A DNA stretch of 64,000 bases from Leucoraja erinacea (taxonomy: Eukaryota). The stretch is taken from the NCBI RefSeq assembly GCF_028641065.1, contig NW_026576092.1:124001-188000 (forward strand), in the 5' to 3' direction. The position numbers were made by a program, and so were the translations under genes. The notes beneath the pieces were generated by a model, which had not been told where the DNA came from, did not search any database, and was given only the letters and a program-made list of their open reading frames with translations. Positions 34,200-64,000 of the stretch are shown here, piece after piece (the first letter of the stretch is position 1; the number at the start of each line of letters is the position of its first letter).

Positions 34200-34732
34200 C
34201 TCCCTATCTCCCCATTCACCTCTCTCCTCCTCATTCTCCTCCCCTCTTTCTTCTTCTCCTCCTCCTTGTAGAGATATATATGTGGCTAATAGCATGTAAC
34301 CAATTCAATTCCTTCCCTCCTTCTCCCTTCCCCTCCTCCCCCTCCTTCCCTCCCTCCATCCTCCCTCTTTCCTTCCCTCCCTCCCCACCTCCCCTCCCNN
34401 NNNNNNNNNNNNNNNNNNNNNNNNNNNNNNNNNNNNNNNNNNNNNNNNNNNNNNNNNNNNNNNNNNNNNNNNNNNNNNNNNNNNNNNNNNNNNNNNNNNN
34501 NNNNNNNNNNNNNNNNNNNNNNNNNNNNNNNNNNNNNNNNNNNNNNNNNNNNNNNNNNNNNNNNNNNNNNNNNNNNNNNNNNNNNNNNNNNNNNNNNNNN
34601 NNNNNNNNNNNNNNCTCATCTCCTTCTTCCTTCCTTCCTTCCCTCCCTCCTTACCCCCTTCCCTCCTCTCCTTCTTCCTTCCTCCCTCCCTCTCTCCCTC
34701 CTTCCCTCCCCTCTCTCCCTCCTTCCCTCCTC
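34200..34732. repeat. polypyrimidine (CCTT/CCCT) low-complexity tract containing an assembly gap (216 N, 34399-34614)
   Basis: Directly visible in the sequence. Confidence 0.95.
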
Positions 34733-49417: not shown

Positions 49418-49995
49418 AGGCCATCTCGACCCTTCTAGTCCGTGCCGAACACATAATCTCCCCTAGTCCCATATACCTGCGCTCAGACCATAACCCTCCA
49501 TTCCCTTCCCATCCATATAACTATCCAATTTATTTTTAAATGATAAAAACGAACCTGCCTCCACCACCTTCACTGGAAGCTCATTCCACACAGCTACCAC
49601 TCTCTGAGTAAAGAAGTTCCCCCTCATGTTACCCCCTAAACTTCAGTCCCTTAATTCTCATGTCATGTCCCCTTGTTTGAATCTTCCCTACTCTCAGTGG
49701 GAAAAGCTTTTCCACGTCAACTCTGTCTATCCCTCTCATCATTTTAAAAACCTCTATCAAGTCCCCCCTTAACCTTCTGCGCTCCAAAGAATAAAGCCCT
49801 AACTTGTTCAACCTTTCTCTGTAACTTAGTTGCTGAAACCCAGGCAACATTCTAGTAAATCTCCTCTGTACTCTCTCTATTTTGTTGACATCCTTCCTAT
49901 AATTAGGCGACCAAAATTGTACACCATACTCCAGAATTGGCCTCACCAATGCCTTGTACAATTTTAACATTACATCCCAACTTCTATACTCAAAT
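49417..49995 (-). mobile_element. CR1 family B fragment at the truncated 3' end of the ERV
   Basis: ORF 49629..49970. Confidence 0.9.
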
Positions 49996-50509
49996 GGGGA
50001 TTCACCTTATGGATATATCTATCCCCGCCCTTCCCTACGGCTGCTACAATCCTCCCTAATAGGGGTTTAGTGGTCAGGGGCTTCCCGTCAGATGAGGTGT
50101 ACCCTCGGCAGGACCAGATGGCCAGATATTCCGTGCAGGAATTGCAGGTGAACATGCTGTCCGAAAATATGGTGTATGGTGTTGGGAAACGCTTGGGATG
50201 GGTCACCATGTACATTACCGCCGCCAGCTCGGCCTGCTGGGCGCTTAACGTATGTGGGAGTTTAAGAGCTAGGGCTATCTCTGCCTCGGAGTCCCAGATC
50301 CCACAGCCCGTGAGCCGTATTCCCTCGGACACGAAACTGGACCCGTCCACGTATATTTCCCTACCCGTGGGATGTAACCCTGCTCTAAGCCCAAAGTCCA
50401 CCTCCCACTCTACCCCTTTGTGTAGCAGCTGGTGTATAAAGTCTCGGCAGTAGCCCGTGACTCCCAGAAATGATCTTACCCCCCCACGTCCGTTGGGACT
50501 GGGAGTTCC

Positions 50510-51241
50510 TGCACTACCTAGGACTACATCTGTCTGATGACCTGACGTCCACGGCCAACACCACAGCTCTGGTCAAGAGAGCCCAGCAGCGACTTCACCC
50601 TCTCCGAAGACTACGTAAAGCAGGCCTCCCCACCACACATCTACGGACTTTTTATAGGGGGACTGTCGAGAGCACACTGACATACGGCATCACTTCCTGG
50701 TTCGGGAGCTGCAAGGCGTACGAACGGCACCAACTAGACAGGATTGTGAAGACCGCAAGCAGGATTATTGGTGCTCCACTCCCCTTCCTGCTGGACATAT
50801 ACAGGAAGAGATGTATCAGCAGAGCCATCTCCATCATCAAAGACCCCTACCACCCATCGCATGACATTTTCTCCATCCTGCCATCTGGGAAGAGGTACAG
50901 GAGCATTAGCTGCAAAACCAGCAGGATGCTCCTCAGCTTCTTCCCACAGGCTATAAGACTGATAAACGGACTTTGCCCCCTGCCAAGTATCGCGCACAAA
51001 CCCCCACACTGCAGCAGAGCCACTGTTGTGCCGCTGCCGGTCGGAACGCCTGTTGAATGTTTAGTAGAGTGTTAAATTTGTTCATGATACATGTATTTTT
51101 TTTTTATTTTTTTTTTAAATTTCTATTTATTTTTCATGCACACTGAATGGACACTGGTTGAGCAACGTTTTTTTGTTTCCTCTGGGTATGCGAATACTCA
51201 GGAAATGACAATAAAGATATACAATACAATACAATACAATA
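50510..51241 (+). mobile_element. Rex1/Babar fragment, (caata)n-tail family, inserted in the ERV RT
   Basis: ORF 50470..51075 (KRAQQRLHPLRRLRK, ILPSGKRYRS). Confidence 0.9.
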
Positions 51242-51717
51242 CCTGCCTTCTTGCTGTATCGATACCCCTTTCTCCGGCCCTAAGGGTCAGTCCCAAGAAC
51301 TTTACATCTTGTAACCCTATCTGTGCCTTCTTGGGATTTATTTTTAACCGCTCTTACAGAGCAGCTCCAGCAGTTCATTTACTAGGGGCCCATGTTCCTC
51401 TCTGGTGTCCGTGAATAGCAAAATATCGTCCACATGCTGGACGATCTTGTGGGGCTCACTAAATTCCTTTAAACATTCTGCCATACATTGGTGGAAAATA
51501 CTGGGGCTATTGTGGAACCCTTGGGGAAGACAGTTCCACGTGTACTGTTGCCCCTTGAATGTGAAAGCAAATTTGTACTGGTCTTCCTTCCTGACCGGGA
51601 TAGACCAGAAACCGTTCGAGATGTCTAGCACCGTAAATACAAATGCAGACGCTGGAATTTCCCCTAATAGGTCTGCTACAGCTGCCACAGTTGGTGCGCA
51701 AGCCGGAATATTCTTAT

Positions 51718-53413
51718 TCATAGAAACATAGAAACATAGAAAATAGATGCAGGAGTAGGCCATTCGGCCCTTCGAGCCTGCACCGCCATTCGATATGATC
51801 ATGGCTGATCATCCAACTCAGTATCACATCCCTGTGTTCTCTCCATACCCCCTAATCCCTTTAGCCACAAGGGCCACATCTAACTCCCACCCAAATATAT
51901 CCAATGAACTGGCCTCAACTACCTTCTGTGGCAGGAATTCCACAGATTCACCACTCTGTGTAAAAAATGATGTTCTCATCTCGGTCCTAAAAGACTTCCC
52001 TCTTATCCTTAAACTGTGACCCCCAGTTCTGGACTTCCCCAACAACGGGAATAATCTTCCTGCATCTAGCCTGTCCAACCCCCCAAGAATCCCGTAAGTT
52101 TCCATAAGATCCCCCCTCAATCTTCTAAATTCTAGCATGTACAAGCCGAGTCTATCCAGTCTTTCTTCATATGAAAGTCCTGCCAGGACCCTATATTCTA
52201 CCGTGGCCCTCCAGGAATTGTCTGGCTTCCGTACGGGCCAGAGCTGTGAGTTCACATGGGTGGCTATGGGCCTCAAAACGCCTTGCTTAACCAGTGGACT
52301 CAGGGCGACTTCTAAGTCAGCCTCTGCTTCTCGGGGAAAACTATACTGTTTCTACCCGTCTATCCTGACCTCTATTCCTGTGACACTTCCACAGTCGTGC
52401 TTGTGAGTAGCGAATAAGGCCAAATTTCGCTTAACATGGCCTCGATACTCTGTCGGGGTCTGCCTCACTAGGACCTCTAGATCATACCCCTCTCTGATGC
52501 CCTCTCGATGGCCATTACCATATAACCATATAACCATATAACCATATAACAATTACAGCACGGAAACAGGCCATCTCGGCCCTACAAGTCCGTGCCGAAC
52601 AAATTTTTGTCCCCTAAGTCCCACCTGCCTGCACTCATACTATAACCCTCCATTCCCTTGTCATCCATATGCCTATCCAATTTATTTTTAAATGATACCT
52701 CCTCTCTCTCAGTCCCTTCTCCTGCTATGCCCCACAAACAGTGGTTCCTCAGGTCCACTAGGACCTGGTGGGCCACTATAAAGTCGGTGTCTAGTATCCC
52801 GATGTAATGGGATGTAATGTTAAAATTGTACAAGGCATTGGTGAGGCCAATTCTGGAGTATGGTGTACAGTTTTGGTCGCCTAATTATAGGAAGGATGTC
52901 AACAAAATAGAGAGAGTACAGAGGAGATTTACTAGAATGTTGCCTGGGTTTCAGCAACTAAGTTACAGAGAAAGGTCGAACAAGTTAGGGCTTTATTCTT
53001 TGGAGCGCAGAAGGTTAAGGGGGGACTTGATAGAGGTTTTTAAAATGATGAGAGGGATAGACAGAGTTGACGTGGAAAAGCTTTTCCCACTGAGAGTAGG
53101 GAAGATTCAAACAAGGGGACATGACATGAGAATTAAGGGACTGAAGTTTAGGGGTAACATGAGGGGGAACTTCTTTACTCAGAGAGTGGTAGCTGTGTGG
53201 AATGAGCTTCCAGTGAAGGTGGTGGAGGCAGGTTCGTTTTTATCATTTAAAAATGAATTGGATAGTTATATGGATGGGAAGGGAATGGAGGGTTATGGTC
53301 TGAGCGCAGGTATATGGGACTAGGGGAGATTATGTGTTCGGCATGGACTAGAAGGGTCGAGATGGCCTGTTTCCGTGCTGTAATTGTTATATGGTTATAT
53401 GGTTATATGGTTA
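51718..53413. mobile_element. CR1 insertions in ERV pol: family A 51718-52185 (-), family B 52517-52700 (-), family B 52810-53413 (+, TSD tatccc)
   Basis: ORFs 51824 and 52817; the viral frame resumes on both sides. Confidence 0.9.
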
Positions 53414-53840
53414 TCCCCTTTCCCTCCTGCTCCCAACTCATCAGGATGCATTTCCACTGTGCCTGGAGTGCTCCTAATCGAATGGACAAGGGAATAGAGA
53501 AAAACCCCGTCTTCTTGTTTCCCGTAAAACCAACAAGACTATAGGGCACCCCACTAGATAGAGGGGATGTACGGGGATTGTCAGTGTGGACAATGGTACT
53601 GGAAGCACCTGTGTCCAGCAGGTAACTCCCGACCACATCCTGGACCTCCATCTTGACCCAGGGTCTCCCACATGGGCCATATTCTAACGGGCATAGGAAT
53701 GTGGGCTGTTTCCGGACCCTCCCGCCTTTGACTGCAAATAGGTAATTAGATCTCTTACAGCTATTGTTCCCGGCAATGCCTCTCCCTTCTCCGGGGCTGG
53801 GTCGATTGTTACCGGGGTCCTATCCCCCACTGCTCTACTT

Positions 53841-54949
53841 GTTTTATTTGTTTCTAAATCATTGAATGGCCTCGCCCCGCCTTACCTCTCTGAGCTGCTC
53901 CACCTATATGCTCCTACCCGGTGCCTCAGGTCAGCGGATCAGCTGCTCCTTGAGGTACCAAGGTCTAAGCGGAAGCTCAGAGGGGATAGAGCCTTTTCTG
54001 TTGCTGCCCCGGCACTCTGGAACACCTTGCCGCTGCAGATCAGACAGGCCCCTTCACTGTCCATCTTTAAATCCTCCCTAAAAACTCACTTTTATTCACT
54101 GGCTTTCGACACTGGCCGAGACATTGTTCTCCTGAGTTCCAGAGTGGTGAATCTCTGGAACTCTCTGCCACAGAGGGTAGTTGAGGCCAGTTCATTGGCT
54201 ATATTTAAGAGGGAGTTAGATGTGGCCCTTGTGGCTAAGGGGATCAGGGGGGTATGGAGAGAAGGCAGGTACGGGATACTGAGTTGGATGATCAGCCATG
54301 ATCATATTGAATGGCGGTGCAGGCTCGAAGGGCCGAATGGCCTACTCCTGCACCTAATTTCTATGTTTCTATGTTCCTGTTTTAGTGCTTTTAATGTCTT
54401 TTAATTTTTACTGTTTTTATTGTTTGTCGTCTTTTTTTTTTTAATTTTTTTTTATTTTATTAGAAGTAAGCACAGTCATATGGCACCAAAGTGCCTAATA
54501 TATATTTTCATAATACATTTTATGTACAACTTCTTTTTTTTTTGTTACATTGAAAAAAGATGAGAATAAGAAAAAGAAGTTAGATAGTAAAGGATAGAAA
54601 GATGTGAAATATTTAGTGTGTGAAGAAAGAAAACGAGTAAATGAAGAAAGTTGAGAGAGAAAATAGTGAAAAGAAAAGGAGATCATTATTTATAATCTTG
54701 ACCAACCCTTGTCCAGTCCTGAAACAGTTATTTTTTACAATTGTGTTGCACCATATGATTCCAAAAAAACGACGAATGGAGACCAACTCGTTATGAATTG
54801 GTCTGATTTATCCATTAGGATTATAGTTTGTCGTCTTAATGGTTTTAGTAGTTTGTAATAACTTTTTGTTGACTTCCCGTGTACAGCACTTTGTGGTAAC
54901 TGATGTTGTCTAAAAGCGCTTTATAAATAAAGTTATTATTATTATTATT
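53841..54949 (+). mobile_element. L2-clade LINE 3' end inserted in gag, itself carrying a CR1 (54135-54375) and an L1 (54434-54825) insertion
   Basis: NGLAPPYLSELL..LRSADQ..GDRAFSVAAPALWNTLP..FKSSLKTHFY; tail gtacagcacttt..gcgctttataaataaa(tta)n. Confidence 0.88.
54434..54825 (-). mobile_element. L1-clade LINE 3' end
   Basis: ORF2-like C-terminus DQFITSWSPF, AT-rich UTR, poly(A), 12-bp TSD gtttgtcgtctt (54422-54433 and 54826-54837). Confidence 0.75.
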
Positions 54950-55544
54950 GGGTATCTGCACTCCCTCTTGTAGTGCCCGGGCTTCCCACACCCATAGCAC
55001 ACCAGCCTCATCTCGGAAGAGGTCTGGCTGCCTTCCTGTTTCCACTGCCTCTTTTTGGGGGGTGCCAGTACTATTTTGTGCACCTTGCCCTTAAAGGGCT
55101 CCTCCTCACTTCTCTCCCCATTGCGATATGCAAGGGTGAGCTTCCTGATCATCTCCGCCTCGTTAAGGTTTGGGTCAGCTGGGTCGAACCAGTGCTCGGC
55201 CGATGCCCTAACTCGCGGGAGGCAATTCACCACCAGAGTCTTCAGCCAGTGAGCTGTTCTCTCATCTGAATTCTGCCTGTCTAAAGGCATCCCACACGCT
55301 CCCTCATACACTGCCCACAGCCTGTCTGCGAACATGTCCAGGGACTCAGCTACCTGTTGCTTTGTCTCTCCCACCCTGGTGAAAGGACTACCCTGATTCA
55401 ACCCCATGGCCTCCAGAACCGCTGTCTGTGCCGCTACCCATGTTTCAGGTCTTCCCCCTTCCCTGGAGGTCACCGCCTTGCATAGGTATGAATCTAGGGT
55501 CATCAGTAGCAGCTTTACCCGTTCTACCGCATCGCAATCGTTTA

Positions 55545-56106
55545 TGCGTGTGTACTGTGTGCGTGTGGTACACCAGCTGCACAGCGGCTCAGAGGAAAGC
55601 GCTCCAGAGGGCCATTGACAACGCCCAGAGGATTGTCGGCTGCCCTCTCCTTACCTTGGAGGACTTACACCGTTCCCGCTGCTGCACCAAAAAATCCCAG
55701 AGCATCATAAAGGACATTTCCCACCCCGGACACTCCCTGTTTGAACTGTTGCCGTCAGGCAGACGGTACAGATCTACAAGGACAAGGACGAACAGACTAA
55801 AAAACAGTTTTTACCCCACTGCTATAAAAGCACTAAATGTAGCTGCCAAGGAACGCAGGGGCGATACAGACTAAGGGACTGTGGTAACTGTGGAATCGAC
55901 AGAAGGATGGAGGGTTGGGTGTTTATGCGTGCTCTTTTCGTGATATTTATTTAGTTGTTTATCTTTTAATATTTTACCTTGTATGTATCGTTAGCTTTTA
56001 GAAATGTTTGAATGGTGCACTGACTGGCTGACATTTTTTAATTTCATTGTACATGGCTCATGTTACAATGACAATAAAGAAACTATTCTATTCTATTCTA
56101 TTCTAT
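55545..56106 (+). mobile_element. Rex1/Babar fragment, (ttcta)n-tail family, inserted in gag; second copy at 61428-61997
   Basis: ORF 55428..55874 (QRKALQR, LLPSGRRYRS, RLKNSFYP). Confidence 0.88.
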
Positions 56107-56475
56107 GTCAGCTGCCTGCTGCACCTCCATAAAATGCAATGACGGGTCTCCCGCCCTGGTTAACCTGGGAAAGTGAGCCACCATCCCCCTCAGCACATGT
56201 GCCCCAAGGGGAATGACGATATCACTCTCTATGGGCCCCCTATCTGCCTGCCCTAACGGGGGACCATATTTCCTTTGCCGTACCGGGCACATCTGCCCCT
56301 ACCCGGGGCTGTTGCCCCATTTCAACCCCCGGCTTTACCCACCATGATCGGTAACCCCACCACCTTGTAGTGTGCTACACATGGCACGGAAGCCGCTAAC
56401 TGAGAGTGCTCTCCCGCCCCTCCTTGGGCCTGTCCTTCCCGGACAACCCGAACCCCACCTGCCAACCCTGACCTA

Positions 56476-57230
56476 TCATAGAAACATATAAACATAGAAA
56501 TTAGGTGCAGGAGTAGGCCATTCGGCCCTTCGAGCCTGCACCGCCATTCAATATGATCATGGCTGATCATCCAACTCAGTATCCCGTACCTGCCTTCTCT
56601 CCATACCCCCTGATCCCCTTAGCCACACGGGCCACATCTAACTCCCTCTTAATATAGCCAATGAACTGTGGCCTCAACTACCCTCTGTGGCAGAGAATTC
56701 CAGAGATTCACCACTCTCTGTGTGAAAAAAGTTCTTCTCATCTCGGTTTTAAAGGATTTCCCCCTTTATCCTTAAGCTGTGACCCCCTGTCCTGGACTTC
56801 CCTAACATCGGGAACAATCTTCCTGCATCTAGCCTGTCCAACCCCTTAAGAATTTTGTAAGTTTCTATAAGATCCCCCCTCAATCTTCAAAATTCTAGAG
56901 AGTATAAACCAAATCTATCCGGGCTTTCTTCGTAAGACAGTCCTGACATCCCAAGAATTAGTCTGGTGAACCTTCTCTGCACTCCCTCTATGGCAATAAT
57001 GTCCTTCCTCAGACTTGGAGACCAAAAACTGTACGCAATACTCCAGGTGTGGTATCACCAAGACCCTGTACAACTGCAGTAGAACCTCTCTGCTCCTGTA
57101 CTCAAATCCTTTTGCAATGAAAGCTAACATACCATTCGCTTTCTTCACTGCCTGCTGCACCTGCATGCCTACTTTCAATGACTGGTGTACCATGACACCC
57201 CAGGTCTCGCTGCATCTCCCCCTTTCCCCG
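56476..57230 (-). mobile_element. CR1 family A insertion in ERV gag
   Basis: ORF 56915..57193 plus tail. Confidence 0.9.
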
Positions 57231-57749
57231 GCGCCTTAGGAGGCGGTCTATTCCCCTTTGACCCTCGGGCATCATCTGCTGAGGGAAGCCCTCTGCCCCC
57301 GGGGGACCCCCCTCGTCCTACCAGGTGAACCCGTCCCCTAGTCTTGGACAGAGTCTCCTCCAGCTGCGCTAACCTCGCCTGCAAAGGCCCGTGATCATTA
57401 TCCCCTAGCTCGCTACGGGCCACCCTGTATGCTGCTTGGATATCTTGGAACTTCCCCTCCAGCTCCCTGCACTTCTGTGTACACTGAGCCAGGAATTCCT
57501 GGGCGTTCCGTTCCCTCTCCTTTGCCTCTGCCACCTGGCATTGGAGGAATTCCTGGGCATTTCTGTGGGACTCCCTCGCCTGCAAGATACACTGCCTGGC
57601 TTTACTGCATTCCTCACATAGCCCTTCCCCTTCTCTAGCGCTTTCTTCAGCGCGGGCCCTAGCTTCCCTCAGTTGCTCTTCCAGTCTATCTGCCTGTCTC
57701 TGCATTTTTGCTACCTGCTGTGATAGGCATGCTAGCCAAACTGCCTTTT

Positions 57750-58260
57750 CAAGTCAAGTCAAGTTTATTTGTCACATACACATACGAGATGTGCAGTGAA
57801 ATGAAAGTGGCAATGCTCGCGGACATTTGTGCAAAAGACAACAACAAAACAACCAAACAAATTAGAAACACAATCATAACACACATATTCTTTTACATAA
57901 TAAATAATAGACGGAAAAACGTTCTGTAGAGTTAGTCCCTGGTGAGAAAGGCGTTTACAGTCCGAATTGCCTCTGGGAAGAAACTCCTTCTCAACCTCTC
58001 CGTTCTCACTGCATGGCAACGGAGGCGTTTGCCTGACCGTAGCGGCTGGAACAGTCCGTTGCAAGGGTGGAAGAGGTCTCTCATGATTTTGTTTGCTCTG
58101 GAGTTGCACCTCCTGTTGTATAGTTCCTGCAGGGGGGTGAGTGAAGTTCCCATAGTGCGTTCGGCCGAACGCACTACTCTCTGCAGAGCCTTCTTGTCCT
58201 TGGCAGAGCAATTCCCAAACCAGATGGTAATGTTCCCGGACAAGATGCTTTCCACCGCTG
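57750..58260 (-). mobile_element. Rex1/Babar fragment, (cttga)n-tail family, inserted in gag; same family at 48805-49005 (+), 20198-20365 (-) and 33792-33948 (-)
   Basis: ORF 57932..58255 (ESILSGNITIWFGNC, LRSGKRLR, RLRRSFFP); shared 3' UTR. Confidence 0.88.
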
Positions 58261-58639
58261 CTGTGTTTCCTGCCCTTTATTATAAGCCTTGCTTTCCGTC
58301 CATTGAGCAGCAGCTGCTGCAGGCTGCTGTGCTGTCAACAATACTATCACCCATTGTTTGGTGAGATTGATCTTTTTAAACAGATAAGAGGAGATTCTCT
58401 CCTCCATCCTGCCACGTTCTCTCACCCCCTCTGGCAAATCACATATCCCAAACCACCGAGGTCCTGCCATGGTCGCCATTCTGTAGGGGTTTTGCGTTTC
58501 CCTTTATTTCACTTCGGGCCCAACTGCCCGAGTTATTCTCTCCCTTGTCGGAGGGTCAAACAGCCACCACTCCACTCGAGCGGTTTCCAAGTGAGAGAAT
58601 ACAACAAAAGGGATTCCCCTGGGTTCTAGACCTCGGAAT

Positions 58640-59480
58640 TATGGTGGGATATGATAAAAGGTTGAATTGACCAGAGTGTGCTGATGAGGGAAAACAGAAA
58701 CCAAGATGGACTCAAAGCAAGTCTAAAATTTACAGGCTTTATTAAACAATGAGAAATCGAATCTCACCAACACTACATAATACGTGGCTAAACTTATGCT
58801 TTAAACTAAGACTATGGACGGAAAACTATCGGGCACGTCGTAAAACTTACTTTACACAATTTTACTTGCAAGTACCCCCTTTCCCCTTCTTCTCAACCTC
58901 TATCCTATTTTGGGAATTTCACCAGGTCACTGGGGTACTTACAGTTGGTCTCACGAGCCGTCCAGCAGAGCAGAAAAAGAGAAAGAGTTCTGGCTTGACT
59001 CCTGTTTTTATACCTGAGCTTCCTTTGAAACCCCCAGGTGGTCCTCTGGATAAAAGGGTTCTTTTGATGATTCCCAGTTTCGATCTGGCATGAACAATAG
59101 GCTTCCGATGATAAGGGGTTTGCTGATGTCATGATCCCTCAGCCTGATCGTTATCCCATCGCCTGGATGGGCTCCTATTGTCTCGATGGATGGGTCATCC
59201 AAGATGGTGATTGAGCTTGGGCTGGCCTGTTTACCACCGTCTGCTGAGGCTTGGTTCCTTCCTTTGTGTATCCAAGATAATCTCGTTATCTCCGTCTCAG
59301 CCTTTCCTGTCCACATCATTCGCATATTTGTGTGATGCCCAAGTCCACAGGCCAGACAGGTTTGTGGATTGGGGTTTTTTTCCGTTGCAGCCAGCAAATC
59401 TGTCTTTTTAAAATATCCATGCCCTTATCCGAGTTCTTCCATAATTTTGGAGGATTTGCCCCAATAATTTACAAGTCCTC
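58640..59480 (-). repeat. probable 5' LTR of the ERV
   Basis: TATAAAAA at 59012-59005, GTAAGT donor-like site near 58940, AATAAA at 58743-58738, all directly upstream of the gag start. Boundaries are uncertain because there is no second LTR to compare. Confidence 0.55.
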
Positions 59481-62667: not shown

Positions 62668-64000
62668 TTTACTTCGGAGTCATGTGAGTGACTATGTGAA
62701 GAAGCCCGCCAGGACGCATGCGTGTCATATCGCTACGTGCATTGTGAAACGTCAGACGCGGTGGAACGACGTTCCCCCGCAGCGGCAGTTTTTAAAAGCC
62801 GCAACTTGCAGGTAAGAGTTTACTCTGCGGTCTTTTTTATTTCCATTTCCAACTACAGGTGGGAACATGGACAAAACAAAGAGGACAAGGGCTGTGACAA
62901 AGCTGATGAGGGAGGACCGCGGAGCAGCGGGCAGCCAGCAGCGGCCAGCGGCACTTGGATCATCGATAGTGGGATCAGCTGTGCCTGATGTCGCCTCCGC
63001 ACCGAGCATGTTAACAACTGATACTTACATCTTAAGCAGTATCCAGGGATATACAATTGAGTTTATACACAAGTACAGCCCTCCAGTTCAACATATACCG
63101 AACCGAATGTTCGTGCTTTCTGATAAAGAAAAATCAGAAGCGCAAGCTGAACTGGAGCGGCTTTACGTAAAAGGTGTAATTGAGAAAACTCAACACGAAC
63201 CATTAGAATTCGTGTCCAATATATTTACCAAAGCCAAAAAAGATGGTGGTTGTCGCATCATCATAGATCTGACAAAATTGAATACATTTGTACAATATAT
63301 TCACTTCAAAATGGAAACCTTTGTTACTTCTAAACAATTAATTTCCAAAGGTTACTTCATGGCCAGCATCGATTTAAAAGATGCTTATATTCGGAGGTGA
63401 CCACAGATGTTACTTAAAATTCAACTGGATGGGACAACTCTGACAGTATAAAGCACTGCCAAATGGTTTTATCATCAGCCCCCAGGCTATTCACAAATAT
63501 TTTGAAATCAGCCCTAGGGTTTCTACGGAAACGTAAACACATGGTCATGTCATATTTAGATGACATACTCATTGTAGGCAAAACTTTGGAATTGGCCAAA
63601 CAAACTGTAACAGCCACAAAACAGTTATTTGAAAAACTGGGATTTATTATCCATCCAGTAAATTCTAAACTAACGCCTAATGGACTATTTGGGGTTCACC
63701 ATTGACTCAGTTCACATGTCGATGGCACTACCTAAGGGAAAGGCTAGAGATTTAATAGAGGCTTGCAATAACCTCATTGACGTCAGCAAACCATCCATCA
63801 GATTGGTAGCAAAGATAATTAGTAAAATGGTGGCTGCTTTTCCAGCCACACAATTTGGACCTCTACATTACCAAAACTTACAGAGAGCAAAAATACAAGC
63901 ACTCAAAATTAATGGAGGTCACTTTGATAGACCTATGAAACTACCAATCAAAGCTAAAATGGAACTAAAATGGTGGATAGATAACATCTGGCTTTGTTCC
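62668..64000 (+). mobile_element. DIRS-like (tyrosine-recombinase) retrotransposon, internally deleted and frameshifted, runs off the window
   Basis: IQGYTIEF, SNIFTKAKKDGGCRIIIDL, HFKMET, SIDLKDAY, LSSAPRLFT and YLDD; this motif set is typical of DIRS1 RT. Confidence 0.85.

Follow-up and report, generated by a model that had tools for sequence, protein, structure and literature searches.

A dead, 3'-truncated provirus in the skate Leucoraja erinacea, and the predicted fusion-protein-type envelope of its sister copies

Endogenous retroviruses (ERVs) related to snakehead retrovirus (SnRV) are known from the elephant shark (PMC4422223; CmiERV lineage I), and the SnRV-like clade Huo has been found in all vertebrate groups (PMC6001957). 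For avian Ovex1 a coiled-coil Gag and stop-codon readthrough have been described, as in SnRV; it is a single co-opted locus without a zinc knuckle, with inactive enzymes and an open reading frame 3 (ORF3) of uncertain identity, and tuatara SpeV is placed with the same grade (PMC2717909). An envelope protein (Env) resembling viral fusion (F) proteins has been published for lokiretroviruses (PMC7947760, PMC9040795) and for foamy viruses (structure 8RM1; PMC11468914). Here we describe a minus-strand provirus at positions 49990..59480 of a 64,000-nucleotide stretch of Leucoraja erinacea DNA (contig NW_026576092.1, positions 124,001 to 188,000; hereafter the window), in which long terminal repeat (LTR), primer-binding site (PBS), gag, protease, reverse transcriptase (RT) and RNase H segments are collinear. 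With a probability of roughly 0.8, it is a dead, 3'-truncated member of a multi-copy ERV family that combines a pol of the SnRV-like (clade Huo) grade with, in its sister copies, an Env of F-type fold. The grade is already known, the family is new to it, and the type of Env appears to be undescribed there; this Env likely links several retroviral envelopes that were thought unrelated.

Relationships of the polymerase

The polymerase was compared with the SnRV genome (identified by an RT identical to the one that the supplement of PMC7947760 prints for SnRV), foamy, epsilon- and gammaretrovirus genomes, three loki-type loci (teleost-type, assigned because they resemble the RTs that data set S3 of the same paper prints) and database proteins. 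The window RT was read with an X at each break; near-duplicates and long branches were dropped, which left 28 of 46 rows in the RT tree, and 24 of 34 rows were kept in the tree of RT plus tether. By RT identity SnRV is the nearest named virus (45%), with frog and coelacanth elements at 47-52%, class I retroviruses at 33-39%, foamy viruses at 34-36%, lokiretroviruses at 33-35% and gypsy elements at 27-29%. Both trees separate the canonical retroviruses, including the skate family, from the loki references (support 96/91 for RT and 99/96 for RT plus tether, both starred). The RT falls inside the clade of ortho- plus spumaretroviruses and outside the foamy clade, while class I forms a starred clade of its own without the skate family in both trees. 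With the tether included, the family branches near the base, in a polytomy that also holds frog, coelacanth and bird elements.

These trees bear out the preliminary description of the locus, which had seen a deep-branching retrovirus that is neither Ty3/Gypsy nor gamma- or epsilonretroviral. It had proposed trees of both RT and RNase H: the former places the family among the canonical retroviruses, whereas the latter had long branches and was uninformative. The class III or SnRV-like affinity that it had offered as one option fits the trees as well, and LDISNGFW, a coiled-coil Gag and a single CCHC knuckle are also found in the SnRV genome. SnRV further resembles the family in its in-frame stop between gag and pol, an arginine-tRNA-type PBS (we presume the assignment to Arg), and a long transmembrane subunit (TM) with a weak match to the env profile (72.7%, see below). 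It differs in the stop itself (UAG-GGC versus UGA-CUG), in a distant integrase, in a Gag that is alike only in the coiled coil, and in not being a sister in the trees.

The nearest pol relatives are frog 'NYNRIN-like' proteins (42-45% over RT-RNase H for the frogs) and coelacanth ones. In a search with RNase H-integrase, the top named matches were bird proteins with the Ovex1 motifs MLIDTGASYSIL and WFVDGSN; bird proteins labelled 'NYNRIN-like' carry the printed Ovex1 Pro-Pol motifs, and behind this label is a retroviral gene that belongs to the same basal grade.

The envelope of the sister copies

Sister copies in the genome, the fuller copies that the preliminary description suggested looking for, retain tether, RNase H, integrase and env in the order LTR-PBS-gag-pro-RT-tether-RNase H-integrase-env-LTR. 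Their env region, 3' of pol, encodes an N-terminal hydrophobic stretch, a surface subunit (SU) of ~330 residues, an RQRR site, a TM of ~450 residues and a C-terminal anchor, and is broken in every sister copy inspected. A natural env frame of 411 residues has 31 relatives; nine of the ten looked up could be named and come from five shark genera, two frogs and the coelacanth.

From its model, env is predicted to fold like the foamy-virus TM and the F1 of paramyxo- and pneumoviruses. The AlphaFold model (predicted local distance difference test, pLDDT, 75.8) matched foamy TM (E 7e-7) and human metapneumovirus (hMPV) F (E 4e-6) in Foldseek, so that the comparison with Mononegavirales F proteins proposed in the preliminary description turned out positive. 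VIA superposed the model on the same two structures with Z 8.5 and 8.4 over 274 and 264 residues (root-mean-square deviation 6.7 and 7.4), and the model of a full-length bamboo-shark homologue matched human parainfluenza virus 3 F0 with E 7.6e-11. Look-alikes in the ESM Atlas were of the Baculo_F/Fusion_gly type, their recognition being below the tool's threshold, and the best sequence match in the PDB was foamy gp130 (E 0.019). SnRV Env was not among the BFVD matches listed for the env model; walleye virus Envs were. The env of a 12,708-base epsilonretrovirus record, possibly an F-like remnant, scored 20-24 bits against the env profile in two runs and 4 in a third.

A profile of 11 chondrichthyan-type TM sequences scored loki Env at 44-46 bits, foamy Env at 3-19 and SnRV Env at 3, compared with 2.2 bits for the best shuffle (93 scored out of 200). 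In hhalign the same profile reached loki Env at 96.9% (279 columns), foamy Env at 75.6% and SnRV Env at 72.7%, while these three scored below 0.5% with each other; the comparison involves pairwise E-values and profiles of unequal depth, and shallower profiles failed. Thus a profile of the seven closest env sequences scored loki Env at no more than 9 bits and missed it, the match depending on less closely related homologues from sharks, and shallow or mixed env alignments gave only 0.4% and 1.3% with the whole SnRV env. The link to SnRV Env is weak, since the 72.7% arose only with the shark-only TM alignment. Pfam recognised no Fusion_gly, Baculo_F or TLV_coat in the env pieces and env-region frames of the sister copies, and a weak Baculo_F (E 0.001) in one of 19 env homologues. 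An Ig-like domain named by the database was not confirmed, because the N-terminal part of SU was modelled poorly in the shark homologue (pLDDT below 50 for residues 1-180).

Foamy viruses share with the family the TM fold common to paramyxo- and pneumovirus F and a 4-bp target-site duplication, whereas the skate Gag has a CCHC knuckle and a stretch that we take to resemble the major homology region (MHR), gag and pol are joined by a stop codon, and the PBS is of the Arg type; foamy Gag has no CCHC, and foamy pol is expressed separately from gag. Class I ERVs have a short gamma-type TM with an immunosuppressive domain and CX6CC, in contrast to the long TM with predicted F1 fold of the skate family.

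Between young copies, the env dN/dS was 0.46 and 0.60 (three pairs in all); against a diverged relative dN was 0.33 and dS was saturated. The values below 1 suggest purifying selection on env, and hence that the family needed Env to spread. Pieces of skate-type env are also present in two shark gene models, a Heterodontus fbxo15 isoform and a Pristiophorus Niban-like gene, as exonisation or annotation artefact.

Structure and history of the window copy

Breaks and inserts were mapped against three uninterrupted sister copies, to which the blocks of the window copy are 83-97% identical (Table 1). Ten fragments of long interspersed nuclear elements (LINEs) at eight insertion sites split the provirus, so that the preliminary description was right about both the collinear segments under about ten nested inserts and their count (four CR1, three Rex and one L2 holding a CR1 and an L1), the family labels being our assumption from motifs and tails. 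Pfam, run on unjoined pieces, recognised a relevant family in four of nine. The long coiled coil of Gag (67% hydrophobic residues at a/d positions; 44% E/K/R/Q) and its single CCHC knuckle were likewise as first described. The RT was said to be YVDD-type with LDISNGF: LDISNGFW holds, YVDD does not in the window copy, which has HVDD, but among the 12 readable of 14 close RT loci nine have YVDD, two HVDD and one YVDS. With its stops, frameshifts, deletions in the gag-pol region and tether, and HVDD, the window copy is dead.

Table 1. Provirus segments and inserted elements, in window coordinates (LINE labels are presumed from motifs and tails)
Feature	Position	Strand	Basis
5' LTR, 992 bp, TGTA...TACA	58482..59473	-	paired LTRs of sister copies; ends and flanks
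PBS, 18 nt	58461..58478	-	complementary to 3' end of host tRNA-Arg(CCG)
gag piece 1, first ATG, no Gly at position 2	58266..58407	-	sister-copy mapping
gag piece 2, coiled-coil region ~135 residues	57230..57750	-	coiled-coil Pfam cross-hits
gag piece 3, frameshifted	56105..56477	-	sister-copy mapping
gag piece 4, likely capsid and single CCHC knuckle; presumed MHR-like stretch	54948..55546	-	zf-CCHC E 1e-4; sister-copy mapping
gag 3' end, 68-nt deletion	53712..53841	-	in-frame UGA junction of sister copies lost
protease, LLDTGAS	53417..53711	-	weak aspartyl protease match, RVP / Asp_protease_2 E 0.02-0.04
protease 3' end	52700..52807	-	sister-copy mapping
RT N-terminal part, one stop codon and short deletions	52188..52519	-	sister-copy mapping
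RT core, LDISNGFW, LPQGFHNSP, HVDD, one stop codon/frameshift	51243..51720	-	RVT_1 E 5e-24 (51347-51718)
RT thumb start, then ~530-nt deletion taking out tether	50435..50502	-	sister-copy mapping
RNase H, YVDGS, SAQQAEL, FSDS	49993..50418	-	RNase_H E 1.8e-11 (49973-50503); CR1 ends it at ~49990
Rex-type LINE 3' fragment, (TACAA)n tail	50503..51242	+	sister-copy mapping; ALKBH8_N E 3.9e-13, the only Pfam match in an insert
CR1-type LINE 3' fragment	51721..52187	-	sister-copy mapping
CR1-type LINE 3' fragment	52520..52699	-	sister-copy mapping
CR1-type LINE 3' fragment	52808..53416	+	sister-copy mapping
L2-type fragment, composite	53842..54947	+	sister-copy mapping
CR1-type piece nested in L2-type fragment	~54110-54335
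L1-type piece nested in L2-type fragment	~54440-54820
Rex-type LINE 3' fragment, (CTATT)n tail	55547..56104	+	sister-copy mapping
CR1-type LINE 3' fragment	56478..57229	-	sister-copy mapping
Rex-type LINE 3' fragment	57751..58265	-	sister-copy mapping

The 4-bp target-site duplication GACT lies immediately outside the 5' LTR. Integrase, env and 3' LTR are absent from the window, and the 3' part of a sister copy matched the window in the LTR alone. Elsewhere, the window holds 216 N (34,399-34,614) and, at 62,700-63,900 (+), RT fragments that we presume from their motifs to be DIRS-like and that are present in the duplicate contigs (below) too.

A pattern search found the PBS to be the exact complement of the end of host tRNA-Arg(CCG) plus CCA, with one matching tRNA gene, which ARAGORN with introns calls tRNA-Arg(ccg); this gene has an 18-nt intron and is the single exact match found in the genome. 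At the gag-pol junction, seven of the nine other copies read have gag-TGA-CTG-pol in frame, the remaining two being the window's duplicate with the same deletion and a diverged relative whose junction is broken. It is the 68-nt deletion of the window copy that produces the -1 pol frame noted in the preliminary description. Under the scheme of PMC13517186, UGA-CUG ranks as a type II-like context for readthrough; the same source gives UAG-GGC for SnRV, and for three fish or frog retroviruses UGA contexts of other kinds. Gag-Pol is likely made by readthrough of this stop.

The RT piece has 14 loci in the genome at 81-100% identity, the next match being at 48% (150 of 6671 candidates scored), the LTR at least 42 matches (40 of 531 candidates scored) and the env piece 82 among 108 candidates (pieces rather than copies). 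Nine further loci were taken with 10 kb on either side, and more were added later. Target-site duplications of 4 bp were present at four loci (GACT, TTTC, GCTG and ACAT), and the LTR pairs of four proviruses diverge by 0.014-0.047, which would correspond to 3-11 million years if the mammalian rate applies and to 32-107 million years under the shark rate that PMC4422223 assumes. The closest named proteins to the family are from sharks, and its host lineage is likely the cartilaginous fishes. Half or more of the LTR words occurred in 14 of the 24 sequencing runs listed and a fraction of 0.08 in one RNA run, which gave no sign of expression.

Contigs C477 and C633 are duplicates of the window locus including its flanks (96-98% identity, LTR distance 0.003-0.015), as a segmental duplication or haplotigs; some LINE insertions are common to them and the window and others differ, and the duplicates date these insertions relative to one another. 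Since C477 retains integrase remnants, env and a 3' LTR, the 3' half seems to have gone missing either from the window copy once the locus had been duplicated or in the assembly, and duplication probably preceded truncation.

Two further elements were encountered. The diverged relative, at C9:60,511,000-60,529,000, has an RT that is 80% identical to that of the window and 84-86% to a Heptranchias protein; its tether is recognised as RT_RNaseH (E 7.5e-18), and its gag and env are interrupted by other elements, among them one that we take to be DIRS-like. A second, young ERV family on contigs C1, C22, C35 and C736 has near-identical RTs and pol frames of ~1,300 residues, and by RT it clusters with the class I (epsilon-like) retroviruses.

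Alternative readings and implications

Several observations weigh against the reading of an SnRV-grade family with an F-type Env. The approximately unbiased (AU) test does not firmly reject a grouping with the loki references (p 0.10 for RT, 0.047 for RT plus tether), and sisterhood with SnRV is not established (p 0.097): the two group at 88/87 in one RT tree, in which one piece of the window copy had been read in the wrong frame, and are left open in another, while with the tether SnRV joins class I (97/97, starred) apart from the skate family. The integrase scores 323 with loki versus 235 with SnRV, the env TM profile is closer to loki Env, and a UGA-CU gag-pol junction is found in both (on the loki side in the one reference read). 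No stimulatory stem-loop stood out 3' of the stop (z 0.09), and the dN/dS values rest on three pairs. Taken together, the trees and AU tests indicate that on current evidence the family is not a lokiretrovirus, and not clearly the sister of SnRV either.

The preliminary description had named a lokiretrovirus-like lineage as one option. On that reading, which would make these divergent lokiretroviruses (lokiorterviruses) the first in cartilaginous fishes, the resemblances are an F-type Env with an RXKR-type site whose best sequence match is loki Env, a coiled coil in Gag, a dual RNase H (common to all retroviruses), and a NYNRIN-like integrase that grouped with loki in a quick tree (SH-like approximate likelihood-ratio test 94). 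The integrase grouping, however, was lost in a careful tree with more rows and NYNRIN. The RT reads LPQGFHNSP rather than the PFGYxNSP of lokiretroviruses, P-F-G being present in all of their RTs printed in the available data set S3 of PMC7947760, and both its low identity to loki and the starred support in the trees place it outside. The skate Gag has a CCHC knuckle and no similarity to loki or SnRV Gag beyond the coiled coil, and the SU is far longer than the ~100-residue loki F2. A search of the skate genome with loki RT gave 11 matches at E<=1e-25 among 150 scored, mostly of the skate family and at best 38% identical, with no true lokiretrovirus among them, and a motif scan of the viral contigs gave none; in the genome table of PMC7947760 six chondrichthyan assemblies carry no asterisk, which we take to mark presence. 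We regard membership of the lokiretroviruses as very unlikely. Odin retrotransposons, the sister group of loki, have a dual RNase H without env, against which the env of the skate family argues.

An env, perhaps with the integrase, could instead have been taken by an SnRV-like gag-pol from a lokiretrovirus or another F-bearing virus. Such a recombinant would explain why the likeness to loki is greater in Env and integrase than in RT, and repeated domain replacement in retroviruses has been argued (PMC7947760). Yet the hosts of the nearest pol relatives, namely sharks, coelacanth and frogs, have homologous Envs too, and the same env profile reaches the SnRV and foamy TM, which fits old shared ancestry; moreover, identity to loki Env is 16% over aligned columns, and the search of the genome yielded no lokiretrovirus RT (best 38%). 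Recombination therefore seems unlikely. That the element is a Ty3/Gypsy retrotransposon, or else an ordinary gamma/epsilon ERV, is hardly credible: Ty3 Gag-Pol is the best whole-pol PDB match by summed score and some relatives are annotated 'Gypsy retrotransposon integrase-like', but the tether plus second RNase H, where Ty3/Gypsy has a single RNase H, aligns in one piece with the RT of murine leukaemia virus and xenotropic murine leukaemia virus-related virus, an env is present, and both options are refuted by the RT and RT-plus-tether trees, given the references used.

For the preferred SnRV-grade family, the active virus would likely have expressed a single LTR-driven RNA, with reverse transcription primed on tRNA-Arg(CCG) and Gag-Pol probably made by reading through the in-frame UGA-CUG stop. 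It would have used an RT-tether-RNase H and an integrase leaving 4-bp duplications, and entry into new cells, by a presumably furin-cleaved and membrane-fusing F-type Env, suggests that reinfection was likely at least part of how the family multiplied. Once integrated, the window copy would have lost its gag-pol junction and tether and collected LINEs; duplication together with the flanks, and then loss of the 3' half, would have followed. More tentatively, and with the odds somewhat against it, a basal lineage of canonical retroviruses (in sharks and rays, coelacanth, frogs and, as Ovex1, birds) may have kept an F-type Env, a slow NYNRIN-like integrase and UGA-CU readthrough as the ancestral state.

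SnRV-like ERVs in cartilaginous fishes were already published (PMC4422223). A literature search that was thin on subscription journals and ERV-survey supplements found no SnRV-like ERV described with an F-type Env, nor does the available text of PMC2717909, PMC13517186, PMC4977317, PMC8672886, PMC9447858, PMC12287698, PMC13709493, 10.1101/2023.10.17.562709 and 10.1101/2023.10.26.564294 describe one. In PMC7947760 and PMC9040795, loki Env had no detectable similarity to canonical Env, and four origin scenarios were left open. The locus itself is a ruin and the interest lies in its family: an element with a canonical RT whose Env matches loki Env (45 bits) and reaches the foamy and SnRV TM means that an F-type Env is not diagnostic of lokiretroviruses. 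The skate and shark Env sequences allow the scenario of a single origin of Env to be tested, and offer a candidate identity for uncertain reading frames such as Ovex1 ORF3, which may be an F-type Env.

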